DNA from: a virus
Lineage: Duplodnaviria > Heunggongvirae > Uroviricota > Caudoviricetes
DNA: 64,000 nucleotides
Direction: 5' to 3' (one strand)
IMG/VR virus record: IMGVR_UViG_3300013800_000004
Location: 1 to 64,000 of that record
Shown here one piece after another: positions 2,435-62,030 of the stretch. Each line of letters starts with the position of its first letter. Positions within the stretch are counted from its first letter, which is position 1. The translations under genes and the position numbers were made by a program. The notes under the pieces were generated by a model, which saw only the letters and a list, made by a program, of their open reading frames with translations, searched no databases and was not told where the DNA came from.

Positions 2435-2450
2435 TACCCTTACGCCCGCC
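2435..2450 (-). promoter_or_regulatory. Class-1 variant GGCGGGCGTAAGGGTAC, 21 nt upstream of the ATG of 1947..2417 (with AAAGGA SD)
   Basis: Motif recurrence, leadered form. Confidence 0.35.
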
Positions 2451-2487
2451 TGTCGGGCATAGGGACTCTCGCCGGTACCATCCTCGG

Positions 2488-2781
2488 ATGCAGGACACCA
2501 TCATTCGCCACCTCGACCACTGGCCTCCGCTCCCTGATGAGGTGGCCGATGCGTTTGAATTTCTGGAGGCGAACGGCCTCTCCGTCACCTTGCTCCGCTT
2601 CCGCCCCGGGGACCTTCACAAGGAGCTTGAGGAGTACGCAGATGACGGCCTCCTTTGGGGGGCGGCCTTTACCCCTCCAGAAGAGGGCGCCCCTCCCCAG
2701 CACTTCACGGTTGTCGGCAGCGGGGACAAGACCCGTTGCGTAGTGCTCCACGGGCCGGAGGCGGGACCCCGGGTGTCCTAG
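2488..2781 (+). CDS. Hypothetical protein (97 aa)
   Basis: ATG ORF with plausible composition, divergent from 1947..2417. Confidence 0.45.
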   Translation: MQDTIIRHLDHWPPLPDEVADAFEFLEANGLSVTLLRFRPGDLHKELEEYADDGLLWGAAFTPPEEGAPPQHFTVVGSGDKTRCVVLHGPEAGPRVS

Positions 2782-3038
2782 CGTGTGGGGTGGGGGTTGT
2801 ACACGTACATCCAGTCCATGCCGTACGAGCCGTAGTCGGCCCCAGCAGACCACCCCAAAGCCTTCAGGGCTTCGTACTCGCCCGTGCTGTTGTCGGTGAG
2901 CCACGACACCGAGTGGGTGGCACCCCCGTTCCACAGGTCCTTGCCCGCCCCGACAGCCTCCAGGAAGTCTGCCAGGGACTCGACGCGAGCACTGGTGCCC
3001 GGCTGAACTTGTGCGAGAAACCTGTCACGGGTGGTCAT
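2778..3038 (-). CDS. Hypothetical protein (86 aa), shortened from ORF 2778..3155.
   Basis: Internal Met MTTRDRFLAQ… lies 8 nt downstream of the next gene's stop at 3046. The longer N-terminus overlaps gene 3046..3528. Confidence 0.4.
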   Translation of the reverse strand: MTTRDRFLAQVQPGTSARVESLADFLEAVGAGKDLWNGGATHSVSWLTDNSTGEYEALKALGWSAGADYGSYGMDWMYVYNPHPTR

Positions 3039-3045
3039 GTTCGTC

Positions 3046-3528
3046 CTACGTTCTGGCCAAGCGGCTAGCCGTGATGTGTCCCCACTTGGCCACGCCGAGT
3101 GAGTCCTTGTTGCTGACGGGGAACTCCTGGGGGAACCGGGTGAATGTGACTCCAATCTCCCCCTCGAACTCTTCCAGAGTCAGGACATCGTCCCACCAGA
3201 TTTGACGGTGCGGCACGACCTTTTCGAGTTCTTCCGGGGTCATGAAGATCTTGAATCCTCCGTCCTTGGTGGTGAACCACACGTTGCAGGTTTGGCCGGG
3301 GAAGACGGCGTCGGCCTCGTGGCACCCCAGGGAGTAGATGGCCACATTCCCACCCTGGTCCAGGATGGCGTTCACCCGGTTTCGGATGGTCTCGTACTTT
3401 GAGGCGCAAGTGCCACACACCCCATGACGTTCCGCCTGTTTTCCGAGACTGTGGTGGGGGAGGGTGACGGTTCGGAATCCTGATCTGTCACTCCTTTGTC
3501 CGCAGCCCTTGCAGGTTCTCTTCACCAT
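3046..3528 (-). CDS. Hypothetical CxxC protein (160 aa)
   Basis: Start MVKRTCKGCGQ… at 3528, directly preceded by GGGGTAATACACAC (class-1 motif). ATGgTGA overlap with the upstream gene's stop. Confidence 0.5.
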   Translation of the reverse strand: MVKRTCKGCGQRSDRSGFRTVTLPHHSLGKQAERHGVCGTCASKYETIRNRVNAILDQGGNVAIYSLGCHEADAVFPGQTCNVWFTTKDGGFKIFMTPEELEKVVPHRQIWWDDVLTLEEFEGEIGVTFTRFPQEFPVSNKDSLGVAKWGHITASRLART

Positions 3529-4034
3529 GTGTGTATTACCCCTATGGGTGGCACCCAGGTACCCAACCACCAATCGGGCTGGTTCCGTTTCCACTTGCCC
3601 AGTCGCACCCCCCGCTTGGTTTGGTAGTACCTCTGGTACGCCATCACCGGGTCGGGGCCTTGGTGTTCCACGGGCATGGCTTGTGCGAACGGGGTCAACC
3701 CACTGTGTGGAAGGTTCGGGACGTTCTCCGCGAGGTCACGGAGGATGGCACTGGTGGCGTGGACCCTCATGTACCGTGCGGCGTACTCCCGGCACAGTTC
3801 CCGGCCCAGTGCTGCAAGCCACAGGTAGTTCTCTCGGGATGCTCTTGCCCACACCGCGCACGGGTGGTTGACGTGTGTGGGGCGGTAGGGGGCGGTCCCT
3901 CCTGTGAGGTGGTGGGCGGTGCAGAGTAGCTGTGCGGACTCCACCACCATCTTCACGACGTGGGCGTCACAGTGCCACTTTGCGGATTGGGAGGGGTTGG
4001 AGTGTAGGACGAAGATGTTCACCCCTATGGCGTC
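3522..4034 (-). CDS. Conserved phage hypothetical protein, Cys/His-rich. The start is uncertain (GTG near 4034 or a further-upstream start in the same open frame).
   Basis: Protein-like segment …NIFVLHSNPSQSAKWHCDAHVVKMVVESAQLLCTAHH…YQRYYQTKRG…. The upstream part of ORF 3522..4418 in this frame is low-complexity R/G/P junk. Confidence 0.45.
   Translation of the reverse strand, partial: DAIGVNIFVLHSNPSQSAKWHCDAHVVKMVVESAQLLCTAHHLTGGTAPYRPTHVNHPCAVWARASRENYLWLAALGRELCREYAARYMRVHATSAILRDLAENVPNLPHSGLTPFAQAMPVEHQGPDPVMAYQRYYQTKRGVRLGKWKRNQPDWWLGTWVPPIGVIHTW
3529..3542 (-). promoter_or_regulatory. Class-1 variant GGGGTAATACACAC abutting the ATG of 3046..3528
   Basis: Motif recurrence. Confidence 0.35.
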
Positions 4035-4418
4035 GTCGGGCGCGTGATGTAGAGGTTCCAGACCGCCTCGTCTGTCCAGAACTCCTGCACCTTCCCCCGC
4101 CCTCCGGGACCGGTGCCCGACGGGTGACGGACCTTGGCCGAGTAGCCCAGGGAGAAGAGCTCCTCTTTGGCAGCGAGGAGGACGAGCTCCTCGCCGGAGC
4201 CCATGTCCAGTTCGTAGGACGTGCTCCAGGGGTTCTTCCCCCCCCACCAACTTGAGCATGAAGGCGTCGACCAGGGTCGAGGCTGCGGCCTGCACCCGGG
4301 CCTTTTCGGCCTCGCGGGCGACCCTCTTGGCCTCCTGCGCGGCCATCTCGGTAGCCTTGTGCTCTGCCAACCACTGTGTGGCGGGGATGCGCGGGGCGGG
4401 CTGGTCGGTCGTCGTCAC
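4025..4418 (-). CDS. Hypothetical protein (about 130 aa) that needs a 1-nt frameshift at a G8 run to be read through. Either a sequencing indel or programmed slippage.
   Basis: GTG start at 4418 with GAGGTA 6 nt upstream. Frame A reads MTTTDQPAP…AFMLKLVGG up to the G8 run (minus strand, about 4238-4245). A shifted frame continues protein-like: GKNPWSTSYELDMGSGEELVLLAAKEELFSLGYSAKVRHPSGTGPGGRGKVQEFWTDEAVWNLYITRPTTP* with TAG at about 4025-4027. Confidence 0.4.
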
Positions 4419-4427
4419 GGTCGTACC

Positions 4428-4799
4428 TCAATGCACAGCGGTGTGGAGGAACCATCCCGGCGGGTCCTTCGGACGGCGCTCGGGGGGAAGTGAAGCCACG
4501 AGCTCGGCCAGTGCGGCGTCGTAGGCGGTGGTGTCGGGGAGGCTCGTGAGGCGGATCACCCGCTCCTTGTAGTCGTAGCCGTTGCGGTCCGAGAGGTGGG
4601 GGATCTCCGATCCTTTGACGTAGATGATCACCCCGTCACGGGCGCTCCCCATGGGGGCGGCGAGCTCTACGACACACCCACACGGACCCTCCTCGGGACG
4701 GTCGTTCTCCTCGTCCCAACCCGTCACCGGGAGCCCTGTGGCGACCCCGGTGGGGTCGTAGAACCCGTAGACGAAACGGACCACGGTGTAGGTGCCCAT
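4428..4799 (-). CDS. Hypothetical protein, paralog family A (YDPTG…PPGWFLHT)
   Basis: ATG at 4799, immediately preceded by GGGCGTAATACAACC. Paralog of 7329..7667. Confidence 0.55.
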   Translation of the reverse strand: MGTYTVVRFVYGFYDPTGVATGLPVTGWDEENDRPEEGPCGCVVELAAPMGSARDGVIIYVKGSEIPHLSDRNGYDYKERVIRLTSLPDTTAYDAALAELVASLPPERRPKDPPGWFLHTAVH

Positions 4800-4816
4800 G
4801 GTTGTATTACGCCCAG
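4800..4816 (-). promoter_or_regulatory. Class-1 motif GGGCGTAATACAACC abutting the ATG of 4428..4799
   Basis: Same motif, inverted partner of the 5063 copy in a divergent intergenic region. Confidence 0.4.
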
Positions 4817-5062
4817 GGCGGGTGTCTCACCCCACGTTCACGAACTTGCCTCTGCACCGGATGCAGTCGTAGTGCTCACCCTCGTACAGCCACGGGAGGG
4901 CGTAGACGTTCTCATCCTCCTTGGTGCCATCCAGGCACTTGTAGCAGCACGGCCCCGCGTCGAGGATGAAGCCCTGACGGTCCGTGGGAGGTTGTGGGTC
5001 GGGTGCCGGTGGTGCCTGTGTGTTGTCGCTCATGTGAAGAGTACGCCCGAGGAACTCCCAAC

Positions 5063-5077
5063 GGGCGTAATACACCC
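5063..5077 (+). promoter_or_regulatory. Class-1 motif GGGCGTAATACACCC directly abutting the ATG (leaderless geometry)
   Basis: One of 13 or more copies of GGGCGTAA(N7)ATG or GGGCGTAA(N20-40 with SD)ATG. Confidence 0.4.
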
Positions 5078-5392
5078 ATGACGATGAAGCGTGCAGGAAC
5101 CAAGCTCCCTGTGGTGTGGATCACCAAGCACGCGCTCACCCGTGGGGAGGGCGTGTACCGGGTCGAGAACGCCGTGCGCCAGTACGGCGACACCATCTAC
5201 GTCGAGCACGGCCACCGCGACAGCTTCTTCCGGGGGAACGAGTGGCACGCCACCGAGGAGGCCGCGAAGGCCCGCGTGCGGACGATGGTGGCATCCCGCC
5301 GGAAGGCCATGGCCATCGCGGACAAGAAGCTCCAGTCCATCCTGGACACCCTCGACACGACCGAGTGGCCGGTGAAGATGAGGCCCCGGTGA
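5078..5392 (+). CDS. Hypothetical protein, paralog family B (LPVVWITKHAL…)
   Basis: ATG at about 5078 (or 5084), directly after GGGCGTAATACACCC. ORF 4994..5392 starts from a GTG inside the motif. Paralog of 7713..8063, and the divergent partner of 4428..4799. Confidence 0.55.
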   Translation: MTMKRAGTKLPVVWITKHALTRGEGVYRVENAVRQYGDTIYVEHGHRDSFFRGNEWHATEEAAKARVRTMVASRRKAMAIADKKLQSILDTLDTTEWPVKMRPR

Positions 5393-5787
5393 GACGCACC
5401 ATCGAAGTCGGGGACGAGGTGGTCTACACCCCGGCGTGGCTCCACTCCACGGGGCAGACCCGAGACGACATCGCCCGCTACCGCGGTGTGGTGAAGACCA
5501 TCGAGGTGGTCGGAGAGCAGGTCCTGGCCCGCGTGGGTAGCTGGACCCTGGACGGGATGCTGGTGACGGAGGACGAGTTGGGGACCCCTTGGGAGCCTCT
5601 CGTCAACATCCTGAACATCGCCCGTCCCATGACCGCCCGCGCCATCGACATCCCTCTCTGGGCGGCTGCCATGATGGCTGGTGGGAAGATCGACCATCAC
5701 ACCCGTGAGGCGATCGACCGAGACCGTGCTCGGATGAAGGAGTTGGACGACAAGATCCTCCTGGAGTACCGGACGGAAAGGAAGTAG
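5389..5787 (+). CDS. Hypothetical protein (132 aa)
   Basis: GTG start overlaps the previous stop (GTGA). The N-terminal 90 aa of ORF 5116..5787 is an R/G-rich out-of-frame overlap with 5078..5392. Confidence 0.5.
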   Translation: MRRTIEVGDEVVYTPAWLHSTGQTRDDIARYRGVVKTIEVVGEQVLARVGSWTLDGMLVTEDELGTPWEPLVNILNIARPMTARAIDIPLWAAAMMAGGKIDHHTREAIDRDRARMKELDDKILLEYRTERK

Positions 5788-5792
5788 CCCCA

Positions 5793-6065
5793 ATGCCCCA
5801 CTACCGAGTGACTCGCCCTGAGGGCTACGGCCCCGGCACCCCTGGGTACACCGACCTGGGTGCCCGCCAAGGGTACTACACCGACGCGGACACCCCCAAC
5901 GCCGCACGGACCGTGATCGACACCCGCCTCCGGGCGGACAAGTGGTCGAGCTACCGGCCCGGCGAGCCCCTCGATGTCCAGCCCTGGGGCCGGGGCACGG
6001 GTGAGCCCGATGGCAAGCCCGACATGTCCCCGCTCGGGTACAACAGGGCGCATGGAATCCCCTGA
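5793..6065 (+). CDS. Hypothetical protein (90 aa)
   Basis: ATG with GGAAAGGAAG upstream. Confidence 0.5.
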   Translation: MPHYRVTRPEGYGPGTPGYTDLGARQGYYTDADTPNAARTVIDTRLRADKWSSYRPGEPLDVQPWGRGTGEPDGKPDMSPLGYNRAHGIP

Positions 6066-6312
6066 CCCGGCACCCGCCCCCCTCACCTACTACTGCGACT
6101 CCATGAGGCACCTGATCTGTACTCCTTATTCTGTCCCTCATTTGCACATCATGGCGCGTAGGTTAGGGATTGGCCGTCACTGGTTCCACAACTCCAAGGA
6201 CCACCTCCACTACGACATCCCCAAGCGCCGGATCGCAGAGATCCAGGCCCGGTGTACCGTGGTGAGCCCCAGGGACATCATCAAGATCATCAAGGGCACG
6301 TTCCCGGCGTAG
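6052..6312 (+). CDS. DUF4031-like small protein (…LHIMARRLGIGRHWFHNSKDHLHYDIPKRRIAEI…)
   Basis: Internal ATG of ORF 5974..6312 overlapping the previous stop. The motif resembles the actinophage DUF4031 family, recalled from memory and not searched. Confidence 0.4.
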   Translation: MESPDPAPAPLTYYCDSMRHLICTPYSVPHLHIMARRLGIGRHWFHNSKDHLHYDIPKRRIAEIQARCTVVSPRDIIKIIKGTFPA

Positions 6313-6321
6313 GGTCCGGTC

Positions 6322-6894
6322 ATGAAGATCACCCAGGTGTTCGAGCCCTACAACCACAACGACATCCAGAGCGAGCGCATCGCCCGACGGTTGGGACTCA
6401 CGTTCCACATCACCCTGGACGGTGACACGGTGGAGAACCGGGGGTACCTGAGCAAGGCTCGTGATGCGACCGACCCGGAGTTGGCGATGTGGGCCAAGCT
6501 GGTCCCACCGCAGTGGGTGCCCAAGGGTCGCGGCTACCTGGGAGACCCGGTCCCGGCGGATCGGGCAGAGATGGACGAGATCGAGCACGCTCTTGTGGTG
6601 CCCGGCCCCATCACCATGAACCCCATGGACTACGCGATGCTCCGCAAGCGGGGTCGCGATCACATGGACTTCTGCACGGACGAGAGCCTGTTGCGGCGTG
6701 GGTTCCAGGGGACGTGGAAGAACGAGTCGCCCGTGTGGGTCTCGCGGTCCATCCCCGTGGGCTACTACTGGCGGGGGGTGTACGAGCACCCGAAGCTCCC
6801 CACCCTCGTAGAGGGAGAGACCCTGAACATCCCGGACGTGGACGAGGCCCTTGTTGCCACCATCACGACGGAGCTTCGTCCGTTCCAGGTGTAG
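6322..6894 (+). CDS. Hypothetical protein (190 aa)
   Basis: ATG preceded by GGCGTAGGGTCCGGTC with no SD, so possibly leaderless. Confidence 0.55.
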   Translation: MKITQVFEPYNHNDIQSERIARRLGLTFHITLDGDTVENRGYLSKARDATDPELAMWAKLVPPQWVPKGRGYLGDPVPADRAEMDEIEHALVVPGPITMNPMDYAMLRKRGRDHMDFCTDESLLRRGFQGTWKNESPVWVSRSIPVGYYWRGVYEHPKLPTLVEGETLNIPDVDEALVATITTELRPFQV

Positions 6895-6900
6895 GTGCAG

Positions 6901-7356
6901 CTACTTGGGAACCGTAGCCCACCATGCGTCGATGCGGGGGCGGACTACGGTCATGAAGTGGTCTCCCTCCGCACGTTGAGCGGCCTCCACCTCTCGGCGC
7001 ATCCGGGCGGACTTCTCCGGGTCGGGCTCGACCTCGTACCCGTAGGTCCCCCCGAACAGTCGCACGGGATTCTCCGTGGGGCTGGCCAGCGCCCAGTGTC
7101 GGAGGGACTGGTACAGATCCTCCCTCCAAGGTCCACCGAGCTTCGAGAGGGTCTCGGAGATGCCGTCGTACACCGCAGTGTCGAAGCAGAGCTCACGGAC
7201 ATCCCCGCCTGTGAGGGCGCCGCTGTTCCACCCAGCACGGATGGCTGCGAGCCTCTGGTCGAGGGTGGCCCCGGGTGCCGCCACACCAAGGAGCATGGTC
7301 CACAGGTAGCTGCGAGCCGTCGCCACGGTCAGCCGCAGTCCGTGTGGAGGATCCAC
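6901..7356 (-). CDS. Hypothetical protein (151 aa; alternative start MLLGV at about 7296)
   Basis: Protein-like composition. Convergent with 6322..6894. Confidence 0.45.
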   Translation of the reverse strand: MDPPHGLRLTVATARSYLWTMLLGVAAPGATLDQRLAAIRAGWNSGALTGGDVRELCFDTAVYDGISETLSKLGGPWREDLYQSLRHWALASPTENPVRLFGGTYGYEVEPDPEKSARMRREVEAAQRAEGDHFMTVVRPRIDAWWATVPK

Positions 7357-7667
7357 TTGGGCGGGGTCTTGGGACGACTCGCCTCGGGGACGTACTCCTC
7401 CAGGAAGTCCTTGAGGGTGGCGACGAAGGGCTCCGTCGGGGGGAGGTCATTGATCGTGAACACCGGGTGGTCGAACTCGTAGCCGTCCCGGTCGTTGAGG
7501 AGACGGACCTCGGACGCCGTGGCGAAGATGAGGGAGCCCGAGTCCCCGCCCATGCACTCGACAGCCTCGACAAGGACATCATCGTACTCGTCGTGGGCGA
7601 GACCGAAGGCCTCGCCCGTCGGGTCGTGGTACCCGAACACCCAGCGAACAGTGAGTGAAACGCTCAT
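7329..7667 (-). CDS. Hypothetical protein, paralog family A (MSVSLTVRWVFGYHDPTG…KWILHTDCG)
   Basis: Internal Met of ORF 7329..8084, directly preceded by GGAGGCGTAATACGCAC. The longer N-terminus overlaps gene 7713..8063 and is junk-like. Confidence 0.55.
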   Translation of the reverse strand: MSVSLTVRWVFGYHDPTGEAFGLAHDEYDDVLVEAVECMGGDSGSLIFATASEVRLLNDRDGYEFDHPVFTINDLPPTEPFVATLKDFLEEYVPEASRPKTPPKWILHTDCG

Positions 7668-7683
7668 GTGCGTATTACGCCTC
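7668..7683 (-). promoter_or_regulatory. Class-1 motif GGAGGCGTAATACGCAC abutting the ATG of 7329..7667
   Basis: Motif recurrence. Confidence 0.4.
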
Positions 7684-7697
7684 CTGTGTGTTGTCTT

Positions 7698-7712
7698 GTG
7701 CGTAAATCCTCC
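7698..7712 (+). promoter_or_regulatory. Class-1 variant GTGCGTAAATCCTCC abutting the ATG of 7713..8063
   Basis: GCGTAA plus 7 nt plus ATG. Confidence 0.35.
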
Positions 7713-8063
7713 ATGACCGACACCAAGCCTGCACCCGTGAAGTCCCAACCCCAAGCCGAACCGACCCTCCCCAAGGTCTGGATCACCAAGTACGCCCTCA
7801 CCACGGGCGTGTACACGGCTGAGAACGTCAGGCTTTGCGGGGGCGAAATCTCCCGGACGATTGCGGTCCCCCAAGACACAACGCTTCACCTTGTGTTCTA
7901 TGTGCACAAGCCCCACTGGCACGAGACGGAGGACGAGGCTCGGGCTCAGGTGCAGAAGATGGTCAACGCGGCGCTGAAGTCCCTCAGGAAGAAGCGGGAC
8001 AAGCTCGACGCCGTGATGGCCAGCGTCCAGGGGCCGGTCCCCACGAAGCCCTGGGGCGCCTAG
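7713..8063 (+). CDS. Hypothetical protein, paralog family B (LPKVWITKYAL…)
   Basis: ATG preceded by GTGCGTAAATCCTCC. ORF 7668 starts from a GTG inside the neighbouring motif. Confidence 0.55.
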   Translation: MTDTKPAPVKSQPQAEPTLPKVWITKYALTTGVYTAENVRLCGGEISRTIAVPQDTTLHLVFYVHKPHWHETEDEARAQVQKMVNAALKSLRKKRDKLDAVMASVQGPVPTKPWGA

Positions 8064-8140
8064 TAGATCCTGTGGGCTTCGCACAGAGGCCCCACGGACC
8101 CCGCAGGCCCACCCTAACCCCTCTATGGGTTGGGGTGGGT

Positions 8141-8992
8141 ATGTCCCTGTCTTGCTCTCGGGTTGCTGCCCGCCATCTCATCCGTGTCGCCGCACGGGAT
8201 GCTTGCCGCGTCACCTTTCGCACCCGTACAGCATCCGTGGACCTCACGGAGCGTGTTCTCGTCGCGGCTGCGGAGGGTGCGTTGATTCCCGATGACGGGA
8301 GTCCCATGCGGACCGCGGGGCTGATGGCACTGCCCCGTAAGCTGGCAGAGTTCGCCAAGGCCGTGAAGCGGTACCCGAACCTGTGGGAGAAGGTCAAGGA
8401 GTTCGTCGGGGTCGATAGCCTCGCGGACATTCCCGGTCGGGTGAAGGAACTGGCGAAAGAGGGCTACGCAGCCCTCAAGAAGGTGTTGGCCAGTGCTTTC
8501 GATGCGTGGCCCCTGAAGCTGTACACTCTGCCAGAGAGTGCTGTCTTCTCGGTCAACAAGCTCCTTGAGAAGCTCATGGCGAGGTTCCCGCAGTTCGGCA
8601 AATGGCTGGAGACCAGCGTGAAGCCCCGCGTGGACCAGTTCGACAAGTGGTTGTCCGAGCACCTCCCGGTGATCAGGAAGGTGTTGATGACGGCCATCTA
8701 CGTCTGGATCTGGTTGAACGTGGTGGAGTTCGAGTGGGACATGAAGGGGCTCCTGGGAGCCGCCACAGGTCAGTTGACTCTCTCGTCCCTTCTGGCGAGT
8801 CTGCCAGGGTCCGCCCTCGGAGCCATGATGAACGGGTTGGGGCTGGGCACATTCACCCTCCTCCCTGCCGCCACGGCGGCGAGGGTGCTATTCTTGATGT
8901 CCAAGCGGTACCTGACCTGGACTGGTAGGGGGTTCACTGTCGAGTGGGAGAAGCTCTCCAGTGATTTCGGGGTAGCCCCTGGGGTGCCCTAA
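8141..8992 (+). CDS. Putative membrane protein (283 aa) with C-terminal hydrophobic segments.
   Basis: ATG at 8141; the upstream part of ORF 7835..8992 is R/G/P junk. TM-like stretches VIRKVLMTAIYVWIWLNVV and LASLPGSALGAMMNGLGLGTFTLLPAA. Confidence 0.5.
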   Translation: MSLSCSRVAARHLIRVAARDACRVTFRTRTASVDLTERVLVAAAEGALIPDDGSPMRTAGLMALPRKLAEFAKAVKRYPNLWEKVKEFVGVDSLADIPGRVKELAKEGYAALKKVLASAFDAWPLKLYTLPESAVFSVNKLLEKLMARFPQFGKWLETSVKPRVDQFDKWLSEHLPVIRKVLMTAIYVWIWLNVVEFEWDMKGLLGAATGQLTLSSLLASLPGSALGAMMNGLGLGTFTLLPAATAARVLFLMSKRYLTWTGRGFTVEWEKLSSDFGVAPGVP

Positions 8993-9016
8993 TCTATCTA
9001 TGGGGTGCCGCCAGTT

Positions 9017-9616
9017 ATGGCATCCATGAGATTTTCGGGCCTTGCCCTCAAGATGGCGTCGACCCGTGTGGCTGACCGCTACCTACGACGGGAGCGCACG
9101 GCTCGCATGCTTTTGTCGTTCGGCGTGCGGGACTTTGAGAAGCTGAACCGTGCGGGCAACCAGTTTGCCGTGGTGTCGGCCTACCGCTCAGAACTTGGCA
9201 AGCACGCCAACAAGGAGCGCAACGGAGCCCTGGTGGGCGACATTCAGCGGATGGGGTACCGGAGGTTCGTCCCGCAGAAGTCGTCGTGGACAGACGCCTC
9301 TGGGACACACCCTGAGGCATCACTCCTGGTCCCCGGGATGTCTTTTGACGATGCCGTGCATCTGATGAAGAAGTACAACCAGGACGCCATCGTGTACAAG
9401 GACCCGTCAGGGACCATCGGGATCTACTCCAAGGATCACACCGCGGTGATGGCTTTCGACGAGGGCAAGGACATCGCAGTGGATGTGTCCCAAGACGAGG
9501 ACTTGTACTCCCGGGGGAGGTCATTCTCGATGGGGCTTCGCTTGGTAGACGACCAAACATTCCGGTGGTCGGGGAAGCCCCTCACACTAGGGGATCTGAT
9601 CGGCCAGATGGCCTGA
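9017..9616 (+). CDS. Hypothetical protein (199 aa)
   Basis: ATG at 9017 (MASMRF…). Upstream CTATGGGGTGCCGCCAGTT. Confidence 0.5.
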   Translation: MASMRFSGLALKMASTRVADRYLRRERTARMLLSFGVRDFEKLNRAGNQFAVVSAYRSELGKHANKERNGALVGDIQRMGYRRFVPQKSSWTDASGTHPEASLLVPGMSFDDAVHLMKKYNQDAIVYKDPSGTIGIYSKDHTAVMAFDEGKDIAVDVSQDEDLYSRGRSFSMGLRLVDDQTFRWSGKPLTLGDLIGQMA

Positions 9617-9620
9617 CCGG

Positions 9621-9851
9621 TCAGTTGGGCGAGCCCTGGCCTTCGGAGGGCTCGCCCGTGACGGGCTTCGCCAGCATTGCCCCAAGAGTGGCAACCCGAA
9701 GCTCCTCGGGGTTGTTGGCTGCGACGGTGGGCCCCTTGGCCTTGAACTGCACCGACAGGTTACGGGACTGAAGGACCGCGCCCCACTTGCCCAACGGGTT
9801 GTTGGTCACGTCCACAGCCACCTTCTTGCACTTTCCACCGCCCTTGCTCAT
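9621..9851 (-). CDS. Small basic hypothetical protein (76 aa, MSKGGGKCKK…)
   Basis: ATG with AGGAGAGAGGA SD and GGTGTAATACAG motif about 20 nt upstream. Confidence 0.45.
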   Translation of the reverse strand: MSKGGGKCKKVAVDVTNNPLGKWGAVLQSRNLSVQFKAKGPTVAANNPEELRVATLGAMLAKPVTGEPSEGQGSPN

Positions 9852-9871
9852 GATGAATCCTCTCTCCTGAT

Positions 9872-9883
9872 CTGTATTACACC
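9872..9883 (-). promoter_or_regulatory. Class-1 variant GGTGTAATACAG, 20 nt upstream of the ATG of 9621..9851 (with SD)
   Basis: Motif recurrence. Confidence 0.35.
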
Positions 9884-10035
9884 AACGGTAGGGCCCCGTC
9901 AACTTCCAAATCCTCGTCACCCTCATCTACGGGCCGAAGGGGTTGGGGGGAGAGCGGGAATGGCGGAAGCTGTTCACGACTACAAGCACCCGAGATGCTC
10001 TCGCGGCTCAACTGACTCAGGGGCAATTTCCAACG

Positions 10036-10088
10036 CCAAGTACGATTTCGGTTGCGCACCCCAACCCGAGTGAGTAAGCTCTCCCTCG
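10036..10088 (+). repeat. Imperfect direct repeat R1 (about 52 nt), 5' flank of the tRNA cluster
   Basis: CCAAGTACGATTTCGGTTGCGCACCCCAACCCGAGTGAGTAAGCTCTCCC. It shares an exact 13-mer and about 65% identity with R2. Confidence 0.35.
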
Positions 10089-10186
10089 CCGTCATGAACC
10101 GCTCGCACCAACATCGACATCAGTATTGATCGCCGGGGGTCTCCACGGAGACCTTCCGGCTGGTCCTGAGTCTGTGTAAGAGTGCC

Positions 10187-10272
10187 GGAGCGTTGTGGGC
10201 GAGTGGGAAGCCCGCTGGCTGTAAACCAGAAGACCCAACAGGTCGGAGAAGGTTCGATTCCTTCACGCTTCA
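10187..10272 (+). tRNA. tRNA-Tyr (anticodon GTA), class II with a long variable arm
   Basis: Acceptor GGAGCGT/ACGCTTC, T-arm GAAGG-TTCGATT-CCTTC, and a canonical anticodon loop CTGTAAA (identical to E. coli Tyr). The D-arm parse is imperfect (one extra nt). Confidence 0.55.
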
Positions 10273-10280
10273 CTGTTTCC

Positions 10281-10366
10281 GCATCGGTGGCCGAATGGCA
10301 AGGCGGCGGGCCGTACACCCGCACCCCTGTAGTGGGGGGACGGTGGTTCGATTCCATCACGATGCA
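10281..10366 (+). tRNA. Class II tRNA-like gene, anticodon apparently GTA, with an atypical loop CCGTACA (C33, C37); possibly a degenerate Tyr copy.
   Basis: Acceptor GCATCGG/ACGATGC (7-66 G·A), D-arm TGGCCGAATGGCAAGGC, anticodon stem GCGGG/CCCGC, long variable stem CCCC…GGGG, T-arm GGTGG-TTCGATT-CCATC. Confidence 0.4.
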
Positions 10367-10379
10367 CTGTTTCATTCAC

Positions 10380-10452
10380 GTTGGGGTTAGCACAGTGGTT
10401 AGTGCGCCGGGCCGTGGCCCCGGATACGCGAGTTCGATCCTCGTACCTCAAC
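10380..10452 (+). tRNA. tRNA-His (anticodon GTG) with encoded G-1 and discriminator C73
   Basis: G-1 then TTGGGGT/ACCTCAA acceptor, D-stem GCAC/GTGC, anticodon stem CCGGG/CCCGG, loop CCGTGGC (C33 unusual), T-arm GCGAG-TTCGATC-CTCGT. Confidence 0.55.
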
Positions 10453-10495
10453 CCCAAGCACCCCGACCCTGAAGAGGGTCGATGAAATCCACCAC

Positions 10496-10547
10496 CAAGT
10501 ACGATTTTCAGATTGGTGGTCCCCAAGGTGCGTAAGAGCCCCCGCTG
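10496..10547 (+). repeat. Imperfect direct repeat R2, 3' flank of the tRNA cluster; it contains a GTGCGTAAG class-1-like core
   Basis: CCAAGTACGATTTTCAGATTGGTGGTCCCCAAGGTGCGTAAGAGCCCCC. Confidence 0.35.
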
Positions 10548-10617
10548 GCACGGTGAGCCGCCCGACCAATCGTAGACGGGAGGCCCCGACCACCACCTGT
10601 AAAAGGAGACTGTCATC

Positions 10618-11355
10618 ATGAGCCTCAAGTTGCACCAGTTGCTTGCCGTCGAGAAGACCATCAAGGCGGACGCCGCCAAGGCCCTCACGGACCTGTACCA
10701 CCGTATCGACAAGGGGAGCCTCCTCTCGGGCATCGCCCGCAGCTACCGCCCCCTCACGGACGACGGGGAGCGCCTCCCCCCGGAGAGCACCCTCCTCCAG
10801 CTTCGCGTGGAGCAGGAGATTCCCCCGGTGCTGGCGACCCTCGTCACCCTCTACGACACGATGCTCCGTAAGGAGCACGCCAACCTCCGGGCGAAGGCCG
10901 ACGTGGTCATCGACGGCACGGTGATCCTCTCCGACGTGCCCGTCTGCGCCCTCCTCTTCCTGGAGAAGCAGACCACGGACCTCAAGGCTTTCATCCAGCG
11001 GCTCCCGACGCTGGACCCGAGCGAGACGTGGGCCCACGACCCCGCCCAGAACTGCTGGGCGACGGCGCCCAACGAGACGGCTCGCACCAAGAAGGTGCCC
11101 GTGGTGCTCACCAGGGCCCAGGCCACGGACAAGCACCCGGCCCAGACGGAGCTCGTCCACGAGGACCGGGTGGTGGGCTACTGGTCCACGACCAAGTTCA
11201 GCGGGGCCATCTCGGCTGAGCGCAAGGCGACCCTCATCGCCCGCATCGGCAAGCTCTCCGCGGCCATCAAGGTCGCCCGCGAGGGCGCCAACGCGGTCCC
11301 CGTCGGGGAGCAGAAGATGGGCGAGGTCATCCTGAACTACCTGTTCGGGGCCTGA
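10618..11355 (+). CDS. Hypothetical protein (245 aa)
   Basis: ATG with AAAAGGAGA SD. Protein-like composition; the antisense ORF 10399..11415 is an R/G/D-rich artefact. Confidence 0.6.
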   Translation: MSLKLHQLLAVEKTIKADAAKALTDLYHRIDKGSLLSGIARSYRPLTDDGERLPPESTLLQLRVEQEIPPVLATLVTLYDTMLRKEHANLRAKADVVIDGTVILSDVPVCALLFLEKQTTDLKAFIQRLPTLDPSETWAHDPAQNCWATAPNETARTKKVPVVLTRAQATDKHPAQTELVHEDRVVGYWSTTKFSGAISAERKATLIARIGKLSAAIKVAREGANAVPVGEQKMGEVILNYLFGA

Positions 11356-11369
11356 ACAACGATTTTCCT

Positions 11370-11393
11370 CCCGTGAGGTGATCACCTCACGGG
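11370..11393. terminator. Perfect 24-bp palindrome CCCGTGAGGTGATCACCTCACGGG downstream of 10618..11355; a terminator hairpin or a dimeric-regulator operator
   Basis: 12 bp plus 12 bp exact palindrome with no U-tract. Confidence 0.35.
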
Positions 11394-11879
11394 TAGGGTC
11401 CAGATGTGACAGCACTGGTGTCTGTGTAAAACCAAGGACGGAAAGCCTAAATTTGCAGGTTCGACTCCTGCCCCTCCCAATCTACGGGAGGGTAGCCGAA
11501 TGTTCGGGTAGCCGAATGGCAGAGGCAAAGTCTCTCCGATCCCATCAGCATCAACACCTCAGATTATCACACAAAGCAACAAGGAGAACCCAAGCCTCAC
11601 ATCAACTGCCATCCCCCGATACTTTGCGAATGCTGGTGCAACTCCAGCCCGCCACTCCAAGCGCATGACCCCGTGAGCGTGAATTTGGAGTGGTGGTGGT
11701 CTAATCGTAAGGCGCGCAGACCTAAGACTGAGGGGGTGGATTCAAATGCCGGTGAGGCAAGGTATAGCTCCGAGACATCAGGTCTTACCAACCTGAACTA
11801 CGAATAGAGGCCCTGGCTTAGGATACAAGCTGGGGCTTCGCCTATTTGGGGGCGGTGAAACCCAGGCATCTGAGCTTGG
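11394..11879 (+). ncRNA. About 490-nt non-coding region with locally lower GC (about 48-55%). It contains a tRNA-like 3' element (T-arm GCAGG-TTCGACT-CCTGC plus a CCCTCCC-A acceptor strand at about 11455-11479) but no complete cloverleaf that I could fold; candidate structured RNA of unknown type.
   Basis: No ORF of 60 aa or more with protein-like composition. Contains a GGTTCGA T-loop consensus and a duplicated GGGTAGCCGAATG. Confidence 0.3.
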
Positions 11880-11906
11880 GTGTTTTGTCTATGCCCTCCG
11901 TGGGGC

Positions 11907-12962
11907 ATGGCACTCTCTGCGTCTCGGGTTGCTTCCAGGTACCTGCTTTCTCGGGAGTGGGGAGACCTTGATAGGCTTTTCGCGTCCTACAACAAGGCCC
12001 TGGCTGAGTTGGGTCTGAACGTCGCGCAAGAGAAATCGAGGGCCCGACCCAACTCCCTCATCCTCAAGCACTACTTCGCCCCGGTGGTGAGCACGGGGAG
12101 GGTACTCGCCGCATGGGCGGTCGAGACCAGGACCATTCCCGATGGGAAAGCCAAGGCCCTGGAGTTGGCGGCGCGGTTGATGGGGCTGGTTCGTATCCCC
12201 TCGGACATCATCCGGTGGTACGAGACCAATCTCCCCAAGCTGGAGTTCCTGCGAGAGACAATCCGTTGGAAGGAGCGTTCGGCTGAACCTTCTGGGGGTC
12301 TGGGGCTCACCACAGTGGGGCCGTTCAAGGTCCACAACACCATCGGGGCCAAAGAGAAGCAACTCAAAGAGATTCAGACCCTGGTGAAAGCTGCCGTGAA
12401 GGCGATCACCCCGGTGATGGACTTCAAGAAGGTTCTCTACGGTGACGTGTTCGTGGTGGGCCAGCTTCGACAGTCCCGCACGGTTGCGTGGTACTCCGTC
12501 CAAGAGGATCAAGTGTACCTCAGGAACCTCGCCAAGAAAGGCATTGACGATCTCGCGAGCCTCATCCATGAACTGGGGCATCGGTACTGGTTCAAGTTCG
12601 CCAGTGCGGGCATGAAGAGGAACATCTCCGGCTTGTTCTACAATCTCGCGTCGGATGTCCGGCGGGTGCCCGTCCCCGTTCTCAAGGCTGGGGACATCCT
12701 CCCGTTGAACCTCAAGGGGGAGCTCGCCCCACGGGTCATTACCAAGGTGACTCCGCTGTACTACGAGCTCGGGGATGGGGTCATGGTCAAGGTCCATGAC
12801 GTGGAAGGCATCCTCAAGCGCAAGGCTGTGGTGGGGAAGCTGTTCCCCTCTGCGTACTCCATGAAGAACGATGAAGAGTTCTTCGCAGAGTGTTTCTCGT
12901 TCTACGTTCTCGGGAAGCTGCCTGCGGGGCTGGTCCCTGAGTTTGAGAAGGCCCTCAAGTGA
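11907..12962 (+). CDS. ImmA/IrrE-like (M78) zinc metallopeptidase-domain protein (352 aa; alternative GTG start at 11880)
   Basis: HEXXH as SLIHELGHRYW plus a downstream NDEEFFAECFSFYVL (E-x-x-A-E third-ligand pattern of ImmA/IrrE). Confidence 0.55.
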   Translation: MALSASRVASRYLLSREWGDLDRLFASYNKALAELGLNVAQEKSRARPNSLILKHYFAPVVSTGRVLAAWAVETRTIPDGKAKALELAARLMGLVRIPSDIIRWYETNLPKLEFLRETIRWKERSAEPSGGLGLTTVGPFKVHNTIGAKEKQLKEIQTLVKAAVKAITPVMDFKKVLYGDVFVVGQLRQSRTVAWYSVQEDQVYLRNLAKKGIDDLASLIHELGHRYWFKFASAGMKRNISGLFYNLASDVRRVPVPVLKAGDILPLNLKGELAPRVITKVTPLYYELGDGVMVKVHDVEGILKRKAVVGKLFPSAYSMKNDEEFFAECFSFYVLGKLPAGLVPEFEKALK

Positions 12963-13813: not shown

Positions 13814-13917
13814 CTTTGAGCGCCGGGCGACTCCTGTATCATTGGGAAGGGCGCCCGGCACGATCCGGGCGTAACTCCATTCTCACCGCCTCGCCTTCTC
13901 ACCAAGGACATGATCCC

Positions 13918-14631: not shown

Positions 14632-14635
14632 CCAG

Positions 14636-50724: not shown

Positions 50725-50741
50725 GTAAGCACCTTACGCTC
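50725..50741 (-). promoter_or_regulatory. Class-1 variant GAGCGTAAGGTGCTTAC abutting the ATG of the HNH gene
   Basis: GCGTAA plus 9 nt plus ATG. Confidence 0.3.
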
Positions 50742-55659: not shown

Positions 55660-55665
55660 CCCCAG

Positions 55666-59400: not shown

Positions 59401-61893
59401 GGCAACACAGAGCAGGACCGAGAGACTGAACTGTTCCTGGACCCTGGTTCCAAGACGGTGGTGTTCCGACCGTTTACCCTGAAGTCGGCCATTCTCAAGC
59501 AGTTCGACGAGACGGCACCCAACCCTGGCCCCACTCTTGTGGGATCATCCGTCTACCCGGTGTTTGTCCCCTTCCCCAAGGACGGGAACAACTTGTTCAC
59601 TGCGGGGCTCACGGGCGGTTACGCGGTGCCCCCGGAGTTCATGCCTCGCTTCGGGCGTCAGGACATCCCGTACCACATCTCCACGGGAGTCTCAGACCCG
59701 CTGTACCCGGGCATCAACCACCTCTTCGCGGACGGGTCCGACGCGACCGGGTCGGTGTTCTACATTGTGGGTGGGGTGGACAACGCGGGACCGGGCAACT
59801 CGGTCAAGTCCATTCTGTTCGACACGACCATCACCTACGGCATGAACGGGTCGGTGACCACCCCCTCGAACGTGGCCTATGGTGCCCGCAAGATGAGCGA
59901 TGACGCGGTGGTGTCGTCCGACCTCGGGGTAGGACTCCGTGGCGTCGAGCTTCCCCCGTATCTCGGGATCGCGCGGCTGTACGGCGTGTACGAGCGCGCG
60001 GACTTCGTCGCCCACACGGATGCGTCCAACGTCGGTGCGTTCCAGAACACCAACCGCACCCAGTCCATTGTGGGGGTGGGGGGCCGTCCGCCGGTCAACC
60101 TCCTTCGCACGGACGCGACCAAGCAGACTCTGTTCATCCGCCAAGGTGGGGCCAACGACTACACGAATCAGAGCGATTCTCACACCTACGTGGTCCCAAG
60201 CGATGCCATCGACATCACCCGGATTCCGGGGTACGGGTGGGGGCAGGAGTTCCAGGACTTCGACTACGTGGTGGAGTGTGTGGTCTTCGGGTTCTCCGAG
60301 GGGTTCATCAACAAGAACAACTACGTGCTCGCTCGGCGGCACAGCGGCAAAGCGACGCTGGTGTCAGATAGCTCGTCCCTGGAGCTCACCGATGTGAGCA
60401 TGATCCTTCCGGCACCGGCACCCACCTCGGTGAGCCCCTACGAGGTGTACAACCGCACGGTGTACCAGGGCGACCCGTACATGACCCGCGGGGGGGCATC
60501 GGCACAGCCTGCGGATTACGCTGCCCGATACGGGCAGATCCCTCAGGTGAACGCAGCCCAACTGAGCACCTCCATCAACCAGACGGGGGTGGCCACCCCG
60601 AACCCCCGCGCCCTTGAGGTGCTGGCAACGATGGACTTCTACACGACTCTTGGGACGGGCAAGATGGGGGGCCCCATGGCTCCAGACACCTTGCTTGACT
60701 GTGGGTTCACGGCTCCAAACGCCACGGGGTCTCGCATCCCGTCGTCGATCTTCGACCTCCCGTGGCGCATTGTGCCCCGTGCGTTCACGGCTGGGCAGAA
60801 CGATGACGTCCCGCACGCTTCGGCGTCCATCCAGATCCTGAGCTACGCCACGGCGTACGCCAACTCCATGACCGTGACGATCCGTGGTGTGGTGCTCACC
60901 CCGGACGGTGGGGCAGTGACCAACGCCGACTACGCAACCATCGTCGCCGCGGAAATCAACGACCCAAACAAGTTCCTCACCCCATACGTCTACGCAACGG
61001 CCAATGGCAACGTGGTCACTCTGGTGGCTCGCGAGCCCGGCGCCGCTGGGAACAACCTCACGGTGTCCCTTGCGTTCACGACCACGTTCACTGGAAACAT
61101 GGCCACCACCGCAAATGTGCGGAGCGGAAACTCCCTCCCCCGCACCATGGTGAACTTCTCGGGTGGGGTGGACGTGCCGGTCAACGGCGGGAACGGTGAC
61201 TCCACCGTGTCCCTCACGGGCATGTCTGAGCGGCTGCCCTTGGGCATCCTGGTGTCGGACTCGGATCTCATCGCGGAGAACATCCTTGGGGACGGGGCCA
61301 CCTCCCTCCGGTCATACCAAGGTGGCCTCCGGTCGGTCTACCAGGACGTCCCCCTTACCAGCAACGGGTTCGAGTACAGCCGGTTCCTGGGGGAGCCCGG
61401 CACCGAGCTCTTGATGACCGACGGGTCAATCCTTCAGTACGTCCCGTACAACCCGCCCACTACTCCAGGCGGCACCAGGGCGTTCCGCCTCTACCGTGGT
61501 GGTGGCGCGACGTTTGTTCTGTCGGGGACCGCGCCCGGCGGCCCTGTCACCTGGGCGGGGGACTCGTTCTCGGCGTCCGTCCAGCCGGTGCTCAAGGGTG
61601 CCGTGCTGGCATGCAAGGCCATCCTGGTTCGGAACTACCACGAGAAGGCTTTCGGCACTGTGCGCTCGCAGGGTGACGAGATTCAGATGGTGGTACTCAC
61701 CCAGGCCCTTTATGGGACGACCACGACCACGGCGGACGGGCTCACCCTCAGGGGGCTCATCTCCCCCACGGGCTACGGAGAGGGCTACGCGGCGGCAGAC
61801 CGCTACCGCATCCCGGGTCTCCCGATGGACCGGGGCCGCACCCGCACCACGCGGGATCCTGCAACCCCCCCCGCCCCGTACTACACGCCGTGA
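56467..61893 (+). CDS. Giant structural protein (1808 aa), probably tail fiber or baseplate
   Basis: ATG ORF with β-rich composition, followed by a complex hairpin. Confidence 0.65.
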   Translation: MPEYFGPGVSRALSALAQQFTTVVWQADRPPLDSELNLMSQVDTESLAQMVRSQVHSGFFLDPTRCDADFQTNPLNVNQFILAPPAVVEWVTEVSPTLYAAVNGWVLPIAGAFMSEGGGGDDPANRVRLFPPPTTDSRTDFVFLEVWQALVSANPSAVNKPSASEVYKYGNTQYGGTNLTDEIEDPAVGFETTKRVQLQYRFRVVGSGDGGGVSVDLVNYPDGLTDPNVLGQGTSAAPVGGLTFSNMRSELNDPSLWRAGDGNPANALGTVDGFVYAIPVCAVFRRNTAAFTALAAGGNPNQNGGTERTPSTHGLADPQTGARLLAQASLSADLNETLTGYVKLNNYSTSGLDDPNLFPVGVLRRYLVIGEGLDQEIISINPNTDPGGLGLDSVFIEAGVGRGRGGTMAKFHVRATPVSLYSVRADGLYADQVAPTDILDMRRSINFGDWDYNRLLQKGVAALVQNNLRTAFKQAGTGGDTVGVTTTEVSFFQQPTSGIHLNHVAEVDGTDGIRTVWSDSAAVQSDVTVVLDNEAALDANNYTATTFDAAIGSSWTMGAGFTPNGFLNFTGTQGWCNGSVVFVNIGGKTGTEGARRGILNGQRAVRFIAPYEAWKPGDSDLESHHPWQLRFIGGKSGNSDSGSTPESNGYRAGFMTTPNGMVGSPLAPDPEHPGPMFPVASTNFERPFIVLGGVLNPVLRYTGVPATPANLAPDSLTRAEVNIAGIDWDTLVESTLPLGRDGKTLRDYLTNDGQDFTGMSSKLYLVIYGDAASRDNNGAFQVIGAGTAMRKSLLGGPFTQNVSLVATHLVVRPLSKDYDGFTNTGNNVTIEFRSQEINAEDDNGSDNAPHGLAVVFTDLAGSADLPWGQVSLPLETSGSPARLIPVASKATLTMDLLWSPSHGASHRVPDQVFRFGVENPPAVLCRSPVSVIDPVFVTDTAYPDGDVVYPATQVQLWNRLPSNGLGAPYADAYGGVVVGNTEQDRETELFLDPGSKTVVFRPFTLKSAILKQFDETAPNPGPTLVGSSVYPVFVPFPKDGNNLFTAGLTGGYAVPPEFMPRFGRQDIPYHISTGVSDPLYPGINHLFADGSDATGSVFYIVGGVDNAGPGNSVKSILFDTTITYGMNGSVTTPSNVAYGARKMSDDAVVSSDLGVGLRGVELPPYLGIARLYGVYERADFVAHTDASNVGAFQNTNRTQSIVGVGGRPPVNLLRTDATKQTLFIRQGGANDYTNQSDSHTYVVPSDAIDITRIPGYGWGQEFQDFDYVVECVVFGFSEGFINKNNYVLARRHSGKATLVSDSSSLELTDVSMILPAPAPTSVSPYEVYNRTVYQGDPYMTRGGASAQPADYAARYGQIPQVNAAQLSTSINQTGVATPNPRALEVLATMDFYTTLGTGKMGGPMAPDTLLDCGFTAPNATGSRIPSSIFDLPWRIVPRAFTAGQNDDVPHASASIQILSYATAYANSMTVTIRGVVLTPDGGAVTNADYATIVAAEINDPNKFLTPYVYATANGNVVTLVAREPGAAGNNLTVSLAFTTTFTGNMATTANVRSGNSLPRTMVNFSGGVDVPVNGGNGDSTVSLTGMSERLPLGILVSDSDLIAENILGDGATSLRSYQGGLRSVYQDVPLTSNGFEYSRFLGEPGTELLMTDGSILQYVPYNPPTTPGGTRAFRLYRGGGATFVLSGTAPGGPVTWAGDSFSASVQPVLKGAVLACKAILVRNYHEKAFGTVRSQGDEIQMVVLTQALYGTTTTTADGLTLRGLISPTGYGEGYAAADRYRIPGLPMDRGRTRTTRDPATPPAPYYTP

Positions 61894-61904
61894 ACCACAG
61901 GGAC

Positions 61905-61967
61905 GACCCAGAGGGCGAGCGCCGGGCTGACCAGGACAAGGCAGTCCTGGGGCTCGCCCTCTGGGTC
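61905..61967 (+). terminator. Complex hairpin after the 1808-aa gene
   Basis: GACCCAGAGGGCGAGC…GCTCGCCCTCTGGGTC 16-bp stem enclosing a nested CCAGGA…TCCTGG stem. Confidence 0.4.
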
Positions 61968-62013
61968 GCAGTTCTGATTGCCTACTGGTTCGGGTGGCTC
62001 TAGCGGTGACATC

Positions 62014-62030
62014 CGGGCGTAACGTCGGAC
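62014..62030 (+). promoter_or_regulatory. Class-1 variant CGGGCGTAACGTCGGAC abutting the ATG of the SNF2 helicase gene
   Basis: GGGCGTAA plus 8 nt plus ATG. Confidence 0.35.

Follow-up and report, generated by a model that had tools for sequence, protein, structure and literature searches.

A putative -10-only promoter element, cGGGCGTAA(T/C)AC, shared by leaderless-type and leadered genes in a clade of uncultured huge phages

The late promoters of phage T4 carry a single TATAAATA at -10 and are read by the host core RNA polymerase together with the phage proteins gp55 and gp33. Leaderless mRNAs are produced from a -10 element lying at -12 to -7 in Actinobacteria, in Deinococcus-Thermus and at phage genes such as lambda cI transcribed from PRM. 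Phage AR9 uses an early promoter, AAATATATATTAT-N6-G, and a late promoter, AACA-N6-TA/G, while the late promoters of phiKZ carry TATG (PMC5312081); the 5' untranslated regions of AR9 span 26-491 nucleotides (nt), and no leaderless transcript was found in phiKZ (PMC5312081, PMC8244752). Here, a recurrent motif with the consensus cGGGCGTAA(T/C)AC was analyzed on both strands of positions 1-64,000 of the IMG/VR record IMGVR_UViG_3300013800_000004, a stretch of 64,000 nt hereafter called the window. Judged from its sequence, the window belongs to the genome of a huge phage that is uncultured, and the motif would be the -10 region of a promoter class in which many transcripts begin at or next to the start codon. 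A search of a limited body of literature found no description of this consensus and nothing relevant beyond AR9 and phiKZ.

The motif is strongly over-represented. GGGCGTAA occurs in nine exact copies on the two strands against 0.92 expected, and none of 100 shuffles reached nine; the top over-represented 9-mer of the window, GGCGTAATA, has 5 copies against 0.03 expected. In the sequence-only reading of this DNA, G(G/C)GCGTAA had been said to precede at least 13 gene starts. Since the G(G/C) form adds nothing beyond GGGCGTAA, the exact pattern is present only nine times, and the remaining sites hold as variants with one or two mismatches, among them AGGCGTAA at 7667 (-), GTGCGTAA at 7713 (+), AGGGGTAA at 3528 (-), GAGCGTAA at 50724 (-) and TGGTGTAA at 9851 (-). 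The four exact copies of a 10-mer that it had reported are real (GGGCGTAATA at 5063 (+), 25313 (+), 4814 (-) and 15501 (+)), and its coordinates are correct throughout. A 14-nt matrix was derived from 16 sites; at the cut-off for strong sites, at least 12.5 bits, it found 12 sites in the window, where the null gave 1.0 on average and 2 at most. All 12 are co-oriented with a gene start or remnant open reading frame (ORF) within ~45 nt downstream, and all 12 lie in short non-coding stretches or gene ends. In an annotation-free count of G[CGT]GTAA-N-ATG, the distance from GTA to ATG was 8 nt in six cases, 9 nt in one and 10 nt in two, with almost none elsewhere between 0 and 24 nt. In all, GGGCGTAA(T/C) precedes about 18 genes of this phage and its relatives at a fixed distance.

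The relatives used for comparison were three IMG/VR loci whose von Willebrand factor A (vWA) protein is ~71% identical, seven loci around the actin-like gene, the nearest being of the same strain and the most distant 73% identical, and the LR745208 genome in full (L012-L021). At the protein level, relatives in the phage collection were limited to two uncultured huge phages, LR745208.1, a complete genome of 485 kb with 55% G+C, and, distantly, LR756511.1; megablast of 20 kb against the same collection gave no match. Matrix matches again exceeded the null, with 4 against 0 in locus L008, 5 against 0.4 in L004 and 3 against 0.1 in L002.

Ten genes have their ATG 8-10 nt past the GTA of the motif and lack a Shine-Dalgarno core, and all ten starts are ATG. 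Those on the minus strand include AGGGGTAATAC at 3533-3543, which sits within the last codons of the upstream gene, 8 nt from ATG 3528 and without a Shine-Dalgarno sequence, GGGCGTAATAC at 4804-4814, which has the top matrix score of 20.3 and serves ATG 4799, and GGGCGTAACCC at 24515-24525, before ATG 24510. Divergent genes carry the motif on both strands: GGGCGTACTCT at 5038-5048 (-) for ATG 5033 is paired with another GGGCGTAATAC at 5063-5073 (+) for ATG 5078, and AGGCGTAATAC at 7672-7682 (-) for ATG 7667 with GTGCGTAAATC at 7698-7708 (+) for ATG 7713. Inverted back-to-back copies had been noted at such pairs before, and both pairs bear this out. Each of the two intergenic regions is 44-45 nt long and reads CAT, 8 nt, motif, 14-15 nt, motif, 8 nt, ATG; because the two inverted copies fill this space, no room is left for another promoter signal. 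At 15366-15376 (+), GGGCGTAGAGG lies 8 nt before ATG 15381 of a short ORF and is the first of three tandem copies ahead of the vWA gene. The spacing is slightly longer at GGGCGTAACGT (62015-62025, +), which precedes ATG 62031 of a SNF2/helicase- and terminase-like protein by 9 nt, and at GAGCGTAAGGT (50731-50741, -), where 10 nt to ATG 50724 would leave a 2-nt leader. The eight leaderless cases proposed earlier were thus recovered with GTA-to-ATG distances of 8 nt (4799-, 5078+, 7667-, 7713+, 3528-, 24510-), 9 nt (62031+) and 10 nt (50724-), and two further 8-nt sites, 5033- and 15381+, were added.

Six other genes have leaders of 15-75 nt with a Shine-Dalgarno sequence that starts at or just past the predicted +1. 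At GGGCGTAAGGG (2437-2447, -) the predicted +1 is the G at 2432, followed by a 15-nt leader with AAGGA and ATG 2417; TGGTGTAATAC (9874-9884, -) is followed by an 18-nt leader starting at CAGGAG and by ATG 9851. GGGCGTAACTC (13867-13877, +) precedes a 36-nt leader with AAGGA and ATG 13918, a start that is called in relatives too. For the vWA-domain protein, GGGCGTAATAA (15501-15511, +) places the predicted +1 on the A of AGGAG (15516), with a 16-nt leader before ATG 15532, so that the predicted transcript begins AGGAGAAG. A third GGGCGTAATAC (25313-25323, +) has its predicted +1 at the A at 25328 and a leader of 34 nt, with AAGGAG and a hairpin at its 5' end, before ATG 25362 of a Band_7 protein. 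A weak and tentative site, GTGCGTAAGAG (10528-10538, +), lies 3' of the tRNA cluster and would have a 75-nt leader with AAGGAG before ATG 10618 of a DUF7873 gene. The leadered cases with a Shine-Dalgarno sequence that had been recognized before (2417-, 9851-, 15532+ and 25362+) were all found again, and 13918+ and the weak one at 10618+ are additional. Two more weak candidates have 10 nt to the ATG: the degenerate CGGCGTAGGGT (6305-6315, +) before ATG 6322, and the tentative AGGGGTAAGGT (44478-44488, +), of GTAAGGT flavour, before ATG 44495 of a 1731-aa protein. Genes without the motif typically carry GGAG or AAGGAG 5-10 nt upstream.

An information profile was computed from 30 non-identical sites of the window and close relatives, aligned on the motif. 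The informative core comprises ~12 positions, cGGGCGTAAyAC, from -5 to +7 around the G of GTA, and holds ~13 bits. If +1 is set at the A of the ATG in genes with short spacing, the motif extends from -16 to -5. CGTAAy then takes up exactly -12 to -7, where the sigma-70 family has its -10 hexamer, and GGG the extended -10 positions, -15 to -13. No -35 element is present, since every column from -45 to -6 holds at most 0.4 bit, and nothing TTGACA-like is seen 16-18 bp upstream. The sequence-only reading had remarked that the motif does not fit TANNNT, and rightly so: G stands at -11 in every site, and -7 may be T, C, G or A. The base 11 nt past the G of GTA is A in 11/17 main sites, mostly after C or T, the leadered sites 15516 and 25328 included, and the pattern extends to relatives, as at 2959 in L008. 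Such an A or purine at a fixed position is as expected for a transcription start, and would place one there.

Comparison of orthologues showed that the motif and its spacing persist while the surrounding sequence changes. Upstream of the vWA orthologue in ten phages, GG.GTAA is the sole nearly invariant block, with flanks and leader length (15-55 nt) varying. The L008 gene at 14714 (-), orthologue of window gene 24510, has identical motif and spacing, and the Band_7 site at 25313 is kept in L008 at 15781. Orthologues of the gene at 6322, at 4803 in L002 and 2548 in L004, have a strong GGGCGTAACAC 9 nt from the ATG. In LR745208, GGGCGTAAC-N7-ATG near 71678 (-) has the 8-nt spacing of window gene 5078 and matches window genes 5078 and 7713, and the orthologue of 62031, at 300562, has GGTGTAAGG 10 nt before its ATG. 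The same start codon is used in the orthologue pairs L008 14714/24510, L002 4803/6322 and LR745208 71678/5078. The pyrimidine-dimer-glycosylase gene has the motif in L004 and L009 and has lost it in the window, where the gene is coupled to the upstream gene. Drift has turned the consensus into (a/g)G(C/T/G)GTAA(c/g) in LR745208, and G[CGT]GTAA-N-ATG peaks there with 24 sites at 8 nt and 23 at 9 nt against a background of ~8. Genes inserted in single strains bring their own copy of the motif, as at L006 4330 (ATG 4342). A stop-codon artefact, with TAA as the stop of an upstream gene and a coupled ATG behind it, was rejected: within the window, the TAA closes a long frame only at the 2447- site, where it ends ORF 2440-2934, and in LR745208 it does so at 9/61 sites.

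From the enrichment, fixed orientation and spacing, conservation and lack of a -35 element, we infer that the motif is probably a core promoter element with the start position given above. The consensus cGGGCGTAA(T/C)AC would form the -10-region core of a promoter class common to a clade of uncultured huge phages, and the first transcribed base would lie 11 nt past the G of GTA, in most cases an A preceded by a pyrimidine. At about ten genes, +1 would be the A of the ATG or lie 1-2 nt earlier, yielding leaderless mRNA for which no Shine-Dalgarno sequence would be needed; at the six others, the start would be followed by the leader and its Shine-Dalgarno sequence. The motif would be read by the core RNA polymerase of the host together with a specificity factor other than the housekeeping sigma, which would recall the single -10 element of T4 late promoters; the factor may be a sigma-like protein of the phage or an alternative sigma of the host. 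The earlier proposal was a -10-like element in a leaderless promoter class, with a regulator site as the alternative; all sequence-level tests run agree with the promoter reading, and the class may be phage-specific.

Among described systems, the T4 late promoter is the nearest functional analogue. Both have one 8-12-bp element near -10, lack a -35 element and recur before many phage genes, and the host core enzyme is presumed to act here as well. The window motif differs in being G+C-rich, GGGCGTAA rather than TATAAATA, in that many of its transcripts would be leaderless, and in preceding small early-looking genes and structural or late-looking genes alike; moreover, no sigma-like protein was found in the window. 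The promoter words of AR9 and phiKZ are the nearest genomic analogues. They too are phage-specific words that are over-represented in very large genomes and stand immediately before the start, 6 nt separating them from +1, but they are AT-rich and read by phage multisubunit polymerases, whereas the window motif is G+C-rich, many of its genes are of the leaderless type, and no phage polymerase was detected in LR745208. Known leaderless systems likewise place a hexamer at -12 to -7 from the A of the start codon and use ATG without a Shine-Dalgarno sequence, and the ten short-spacing genes, whose start codons are conserved and appear genuine, follow this pattern. Theirs is a TANNNT element read by the housekeeping sigma, whereas in the window G replaces A-11 and T-7 is not conserved.

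Bacterial alternative sigma factors offer partial likenesses. Sigma-28 (FliA/SigD/WhiG; TAAA-N15-GCCGATAA) resembles the motif in its 8-bp extended -10 element, which has C-12 and G-11 and closes with TAA ~7 nt ahead of the start. A sigma-28 reading was rejected since the A/T-rich TAAA -35 element is missing; the motif also has GCGTAA rather than CCGATAA, and the two classes coexist separately in LR745208. Extracytoplasmic function (ECF) sigma factors recognize GGAAC at -35 and CGT at -10, and the -10 element of B. subtilis sigma-W is CGTATA. The window has CGT at -12 to -10 and no conserved AAC-containing -35 element at any spacing, and an ECF reading was rejected as well. The CG at -12/-11 is therefore at most reminiscent of the -10 elements of both groups, the matching -35 elements being absent. 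Sigma-54, whose promoters have GG at -24 and GC at -12 (TGGCAC-N5-TTGC), was also dismissed, as GC is found at -13/-12 and no conserved GG near -24. A T7-like promoter, suggested by the resemblance of GTAATACG to TAATACGACTCACTATA, was rejected because neither its geometry nor its information content fits and because LR745208 shows no T7-like polymerase: such promoters are nearly invariant over 17-23 bp and span the start, and the motif has ~12 informative positions.

The search for the reading enzyme covered the window and the complete LR745208 genome. Pfam and PHROGs scans of the 64-kb window gave no sigma-like or RNA polymerase gene. LR745208 was screened with signature motifs, phmmer seeds and, for eight of its largest non-structural proteins, Pfam, rather than profile by profile; this screen gave no DFDGD or GEME signature, no phmmer match to E. 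coli RpoB, RpoC or RpoD or to T7 RNA polymerase, and no polymerase domain in the eight proteins. The best match in LR745208 was a 201-aa protein with a Sigma70_r4 domain only (419691-420296, -). No gp55-like protein was identified, the window scans being free of sigma-like proteins and the relative not having been searched specifically for gp55 homologues. LR745208 contains ~40 copies of TTCaCTAAAAAGT-N11-cGTGCCGATAGGGT before a Shine-Dalgarno sequence and ATG (for example at 1629, 12971, 15318 and 349755), which is the sigma-28 consensus TAAA-N15-GCCGATAA; the window has no CTAAA...CCGATAGG site of this class, and the LR745208 screen detected no FliA-like sigma. LR745208 also has a few near-perfect TTGACA-N16-TATAnT sites (TATA(C/G/A)T) before genes, including one TATAGT-N6-ATG, though sigma-70-type sites are not enriched there overall (33 vs 24.7). 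In the window, canonical sigma-70 promoters are not in excess either, with 1 against 2.6 expected in positions 1-20000 and 6 against 4.2 in the whole. The sigma-28-type and TTGACA/TATAnT sites and the lack of polymerase signatures in LR745208 point to a host multisubunit polymerase working with several sigma specificities, a canonical housekeeping sigma among them, and the GCGTAA sites would therefore be a separate specificity.

Several observations weigh against a promoter element read in this way. The copy at 15410-15420 (+), GGGCGTAACAC, scores 16.6 and has no obvious gene; it lies inside a gene remnant, L008 having the intact gene. The sequence-only reading had listed it, at 15409, as a tandem upstream copy, and the copy is real, although a clear gene of its own is lacking. 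The weaker sites at 10528, 44478 and 6305 score inside the null range, and ~13 bits are insufficient alone to specify sites in a 400-kb genome. G at -11 together with a variable -7 is unlike any group-1 sigma element. The scans of the window supplied no factor, the Sigma70_r4-only protein of LR745208 would not explain recognition of a -10 element, and the screen of that genome could have missed a divergent polymerase or a gp55-like factor.

Four other explanations were considered. The phage might simply copy an ordinary housekeeping promoter of its host, whose primary sigma would then have an unusual -10 preference. A host core polymerase is indeed likely given the absence of phage polymerase signatures in LR745208, the hexamer at -12 to -7 has sigma-70-family geometry, and some phyla, among them Actinobacteria and Deinococcus-Thermus, ordinarily have many leaderless mRNAs and promoters that lack a -35 element. 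This explanation is nevertheless unlikely. A-11 is, to our knowledge, universally conserved in group-1 sigma elements, so that G at -11 and the variable -7 exclude an element of group-1 type; the TTGACA-N16-TATA(C/G/A)T sites of LR745208, though not enriched, suggest a canonical housekeeping sigma; and the consensus drifts among related phages, from GGGCGTAAy to GTGTAAg in LR745208, a change that a phage factor co-evolving with its sites would more typically bring about. Recognition by an RNA polymerase of the phage itself, single-subunit or a divergent multisubunit enzyme of the phiKZ and AR9 type, that escaped detection would fit the missing -35 element, and AR9 and PBS1 encode distant homologues of the vWA protein; promoters of the AR9 and phiKZ virion polymerases are similarly built, with an element, then 6 nt, then the start (PMC5312081). 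We regard this as quite unlikely, because no cognate enzyme emerged from the signature, phmmer and Pfam/PHROGs scans of the window and LR745208, LR745208 uses bipartite promoters of sigma-28 type, and ~13 bits are far under the information content of a single-subunit polymerase promoter.

Two further explanations dispense with recognition by a polymerase. If the motif were an operator at which a phage repressor or activator binds over the -10 region, its single orientation relative to genes would have a parallel in the stoperators of mycobacteriophages, which are also short conserved words; small DNA-binding proteins (RHH_1, ROS/MucR-like, Zn-ribbon) are encoded in the window, and inverted copies occur at the divergent pairs. 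Yet the distance to the ATG, fixed to the nucleotide, and the purine at +1 fit a core element instead, the 44-45-nt divergent regions contain no other promoter-like signal, and the motif is asymmetric, with no dyad inside a single site, all of which makes an operator very unlikely. The fixed distance to the AUG and the lack of Shine-Dalgarno sequences would also suit a signal in the RNA, either a processing site that trims transcripts to leaderless mRNAs, as the endonuclease MazF has been reported to do in E. coli, or a translation signal of the 5' untranslated region that replaces the Shine-Dalgarno sequence. Such a signal is highly improbable: six genes have the motif 15-75 nt before a normal Shine-Dalgarno sequence and ATG, at distances that vary between orthologues, and the divergent pairs would need promoters within the opposite coding sequences. 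Rfam found only three tRNAs in the window, so a known RNA family was rejected, and the motif has the same sense as what we take to be a similar stretch near the 3' end of 16S rRNA, to which it is not complementary.

The window has a G+C content of ~62%, is ~94% coding and includes a cluster of small genes on both strands from ~1.9 to 10 kb and a structural module from ~26 to 62 kb (+), in which several proteins have 1100-1800 aa. This module includes a tail-sheath-like protein of 1758 aa (26853-32129, +), whose sheath C-terminal domain is confined to residues 1667-1749; the sheath proteins of relatives have 1648-2082 aa. A cluster at 10187-10456 (+) comprises three tRNA genes, two for tRNA-Tyr(GTA) and one for tRNA-His(GTG), and both tRNA-Tyr genes are 87 nt long with the long variable arm of the bacterial class II type. 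An actin-fold protein (20836-21807, +) matches Pfam Volactin, a haloarchaeal actin family, with E = 1e-75, and is found at 70-94% identity on >100 metagenomic contigs of up to 473 kb, which places the window in a widespread huge-phage clade marked by this unusually conserved actin homologue. Among these contigs, some of 370-413 kb (P0004, P0012) encode actin-like proteins with 94% identity to the one in the window. The Volactin match, the only pointer to archaea, does not outweigh the class II tRNA-Tyr genes, which argue for a bacterial host. An archaeal virus with TATA/BRE promoters, to which the Volactin match and the leaderless genes might point, was rejected on those tRNA genes and on the lack of an A/T-rich signal at -22 to -32. 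Assignment of a host from the actin-like gene in metagenome-assembled genomes was abandoned as well, since the bins (Legionellales, Thermoplasmatales, Betaproteobacteria) are mutually inconsistent. Many genes of homing-endonuclease type (GIY-YIG, LAGLIDADG, HNH, NUMOD3; e.g. 32206-33468 and 43404-44240 (-)) and an intein-splicing signal suggest that mobile elements have heavily invaded the window.

The surroundings of the vWA gene vary between strains. Insertions of small genes directly ahead of it set near-identical strains apart (L005 3757-4732 and L006 3319-4717, compared with 15353-15531 in the window). As every insert comes with a GGCGTAA copy, these look like promoter-plus-gene cassettes; at this locus, the window retains a gene remnant and three tandem copies of the motif. 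Directly 3' of the vWA gene, a G+C-rich hairpin, CGCCGGGCCGGTCGGAGTTGTCCGACCGGCCCGG, is followed by a T-rich tract (18013-18050, +). It is likely an intrinsic terminator that a simple scan missed, and from its position the promoter at 15501, the vWA gene and the terminator would constitute a transcription unit. CAAGGAGTTC, an extended Shine-Dalgarno context, has 5 copies in the window against 0.34 expected, two of which (15430-15445 and 25345-25360) sit in the leaders after the motifs at 15410 and 25313. The sheath gene at 26853 has no motif; another conserved element, CGGTTCC-N4-CTATAC(A/G), lies ~110 nt before its ATG (~26735-26852), is common to L008, L009 and L002, and is followed in the leader by a hairpin, cacaccaaggaacaccccttggtgt. 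This element may be a second, perhaps late, promoter class, or a promoter of the opposite strand.

A broader proposal can be formulated, although as a whole it is rather unlikely: in a globally distributed clade of 350-485-kb phages, an unrecognised sigma-like factor or a reprogrammed host polymerase would read a -10-only element of 11 bp, rich in G+C and carrying G at -11, controlling a leaderless regulon, possibly with a preference for leaderless translation imposed by the phage, as a new recognition class beside the sigma-28-like one. No current concept is overturned by the motif described here, since promoters specific to phages, -10-only promoters and leaderless mRNAs are each well known. 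What it would provide is a testable promoter consensus with predicted single-nucleotide starts for a widespread clade of huge phages, whose transcription is little understood. The motif also helps to correct gene starts, because leaderless genes without a Shine-Dalgarno sequence are easily mis-called, and to split the genome into transcription units. It raises the question of which factor reads a -10 element with G where housekeeping sigmas need A. Together with the sigma-28-type class of LR745208, it suggests that these phages may run several sigma-like programmes on the host polymerase.

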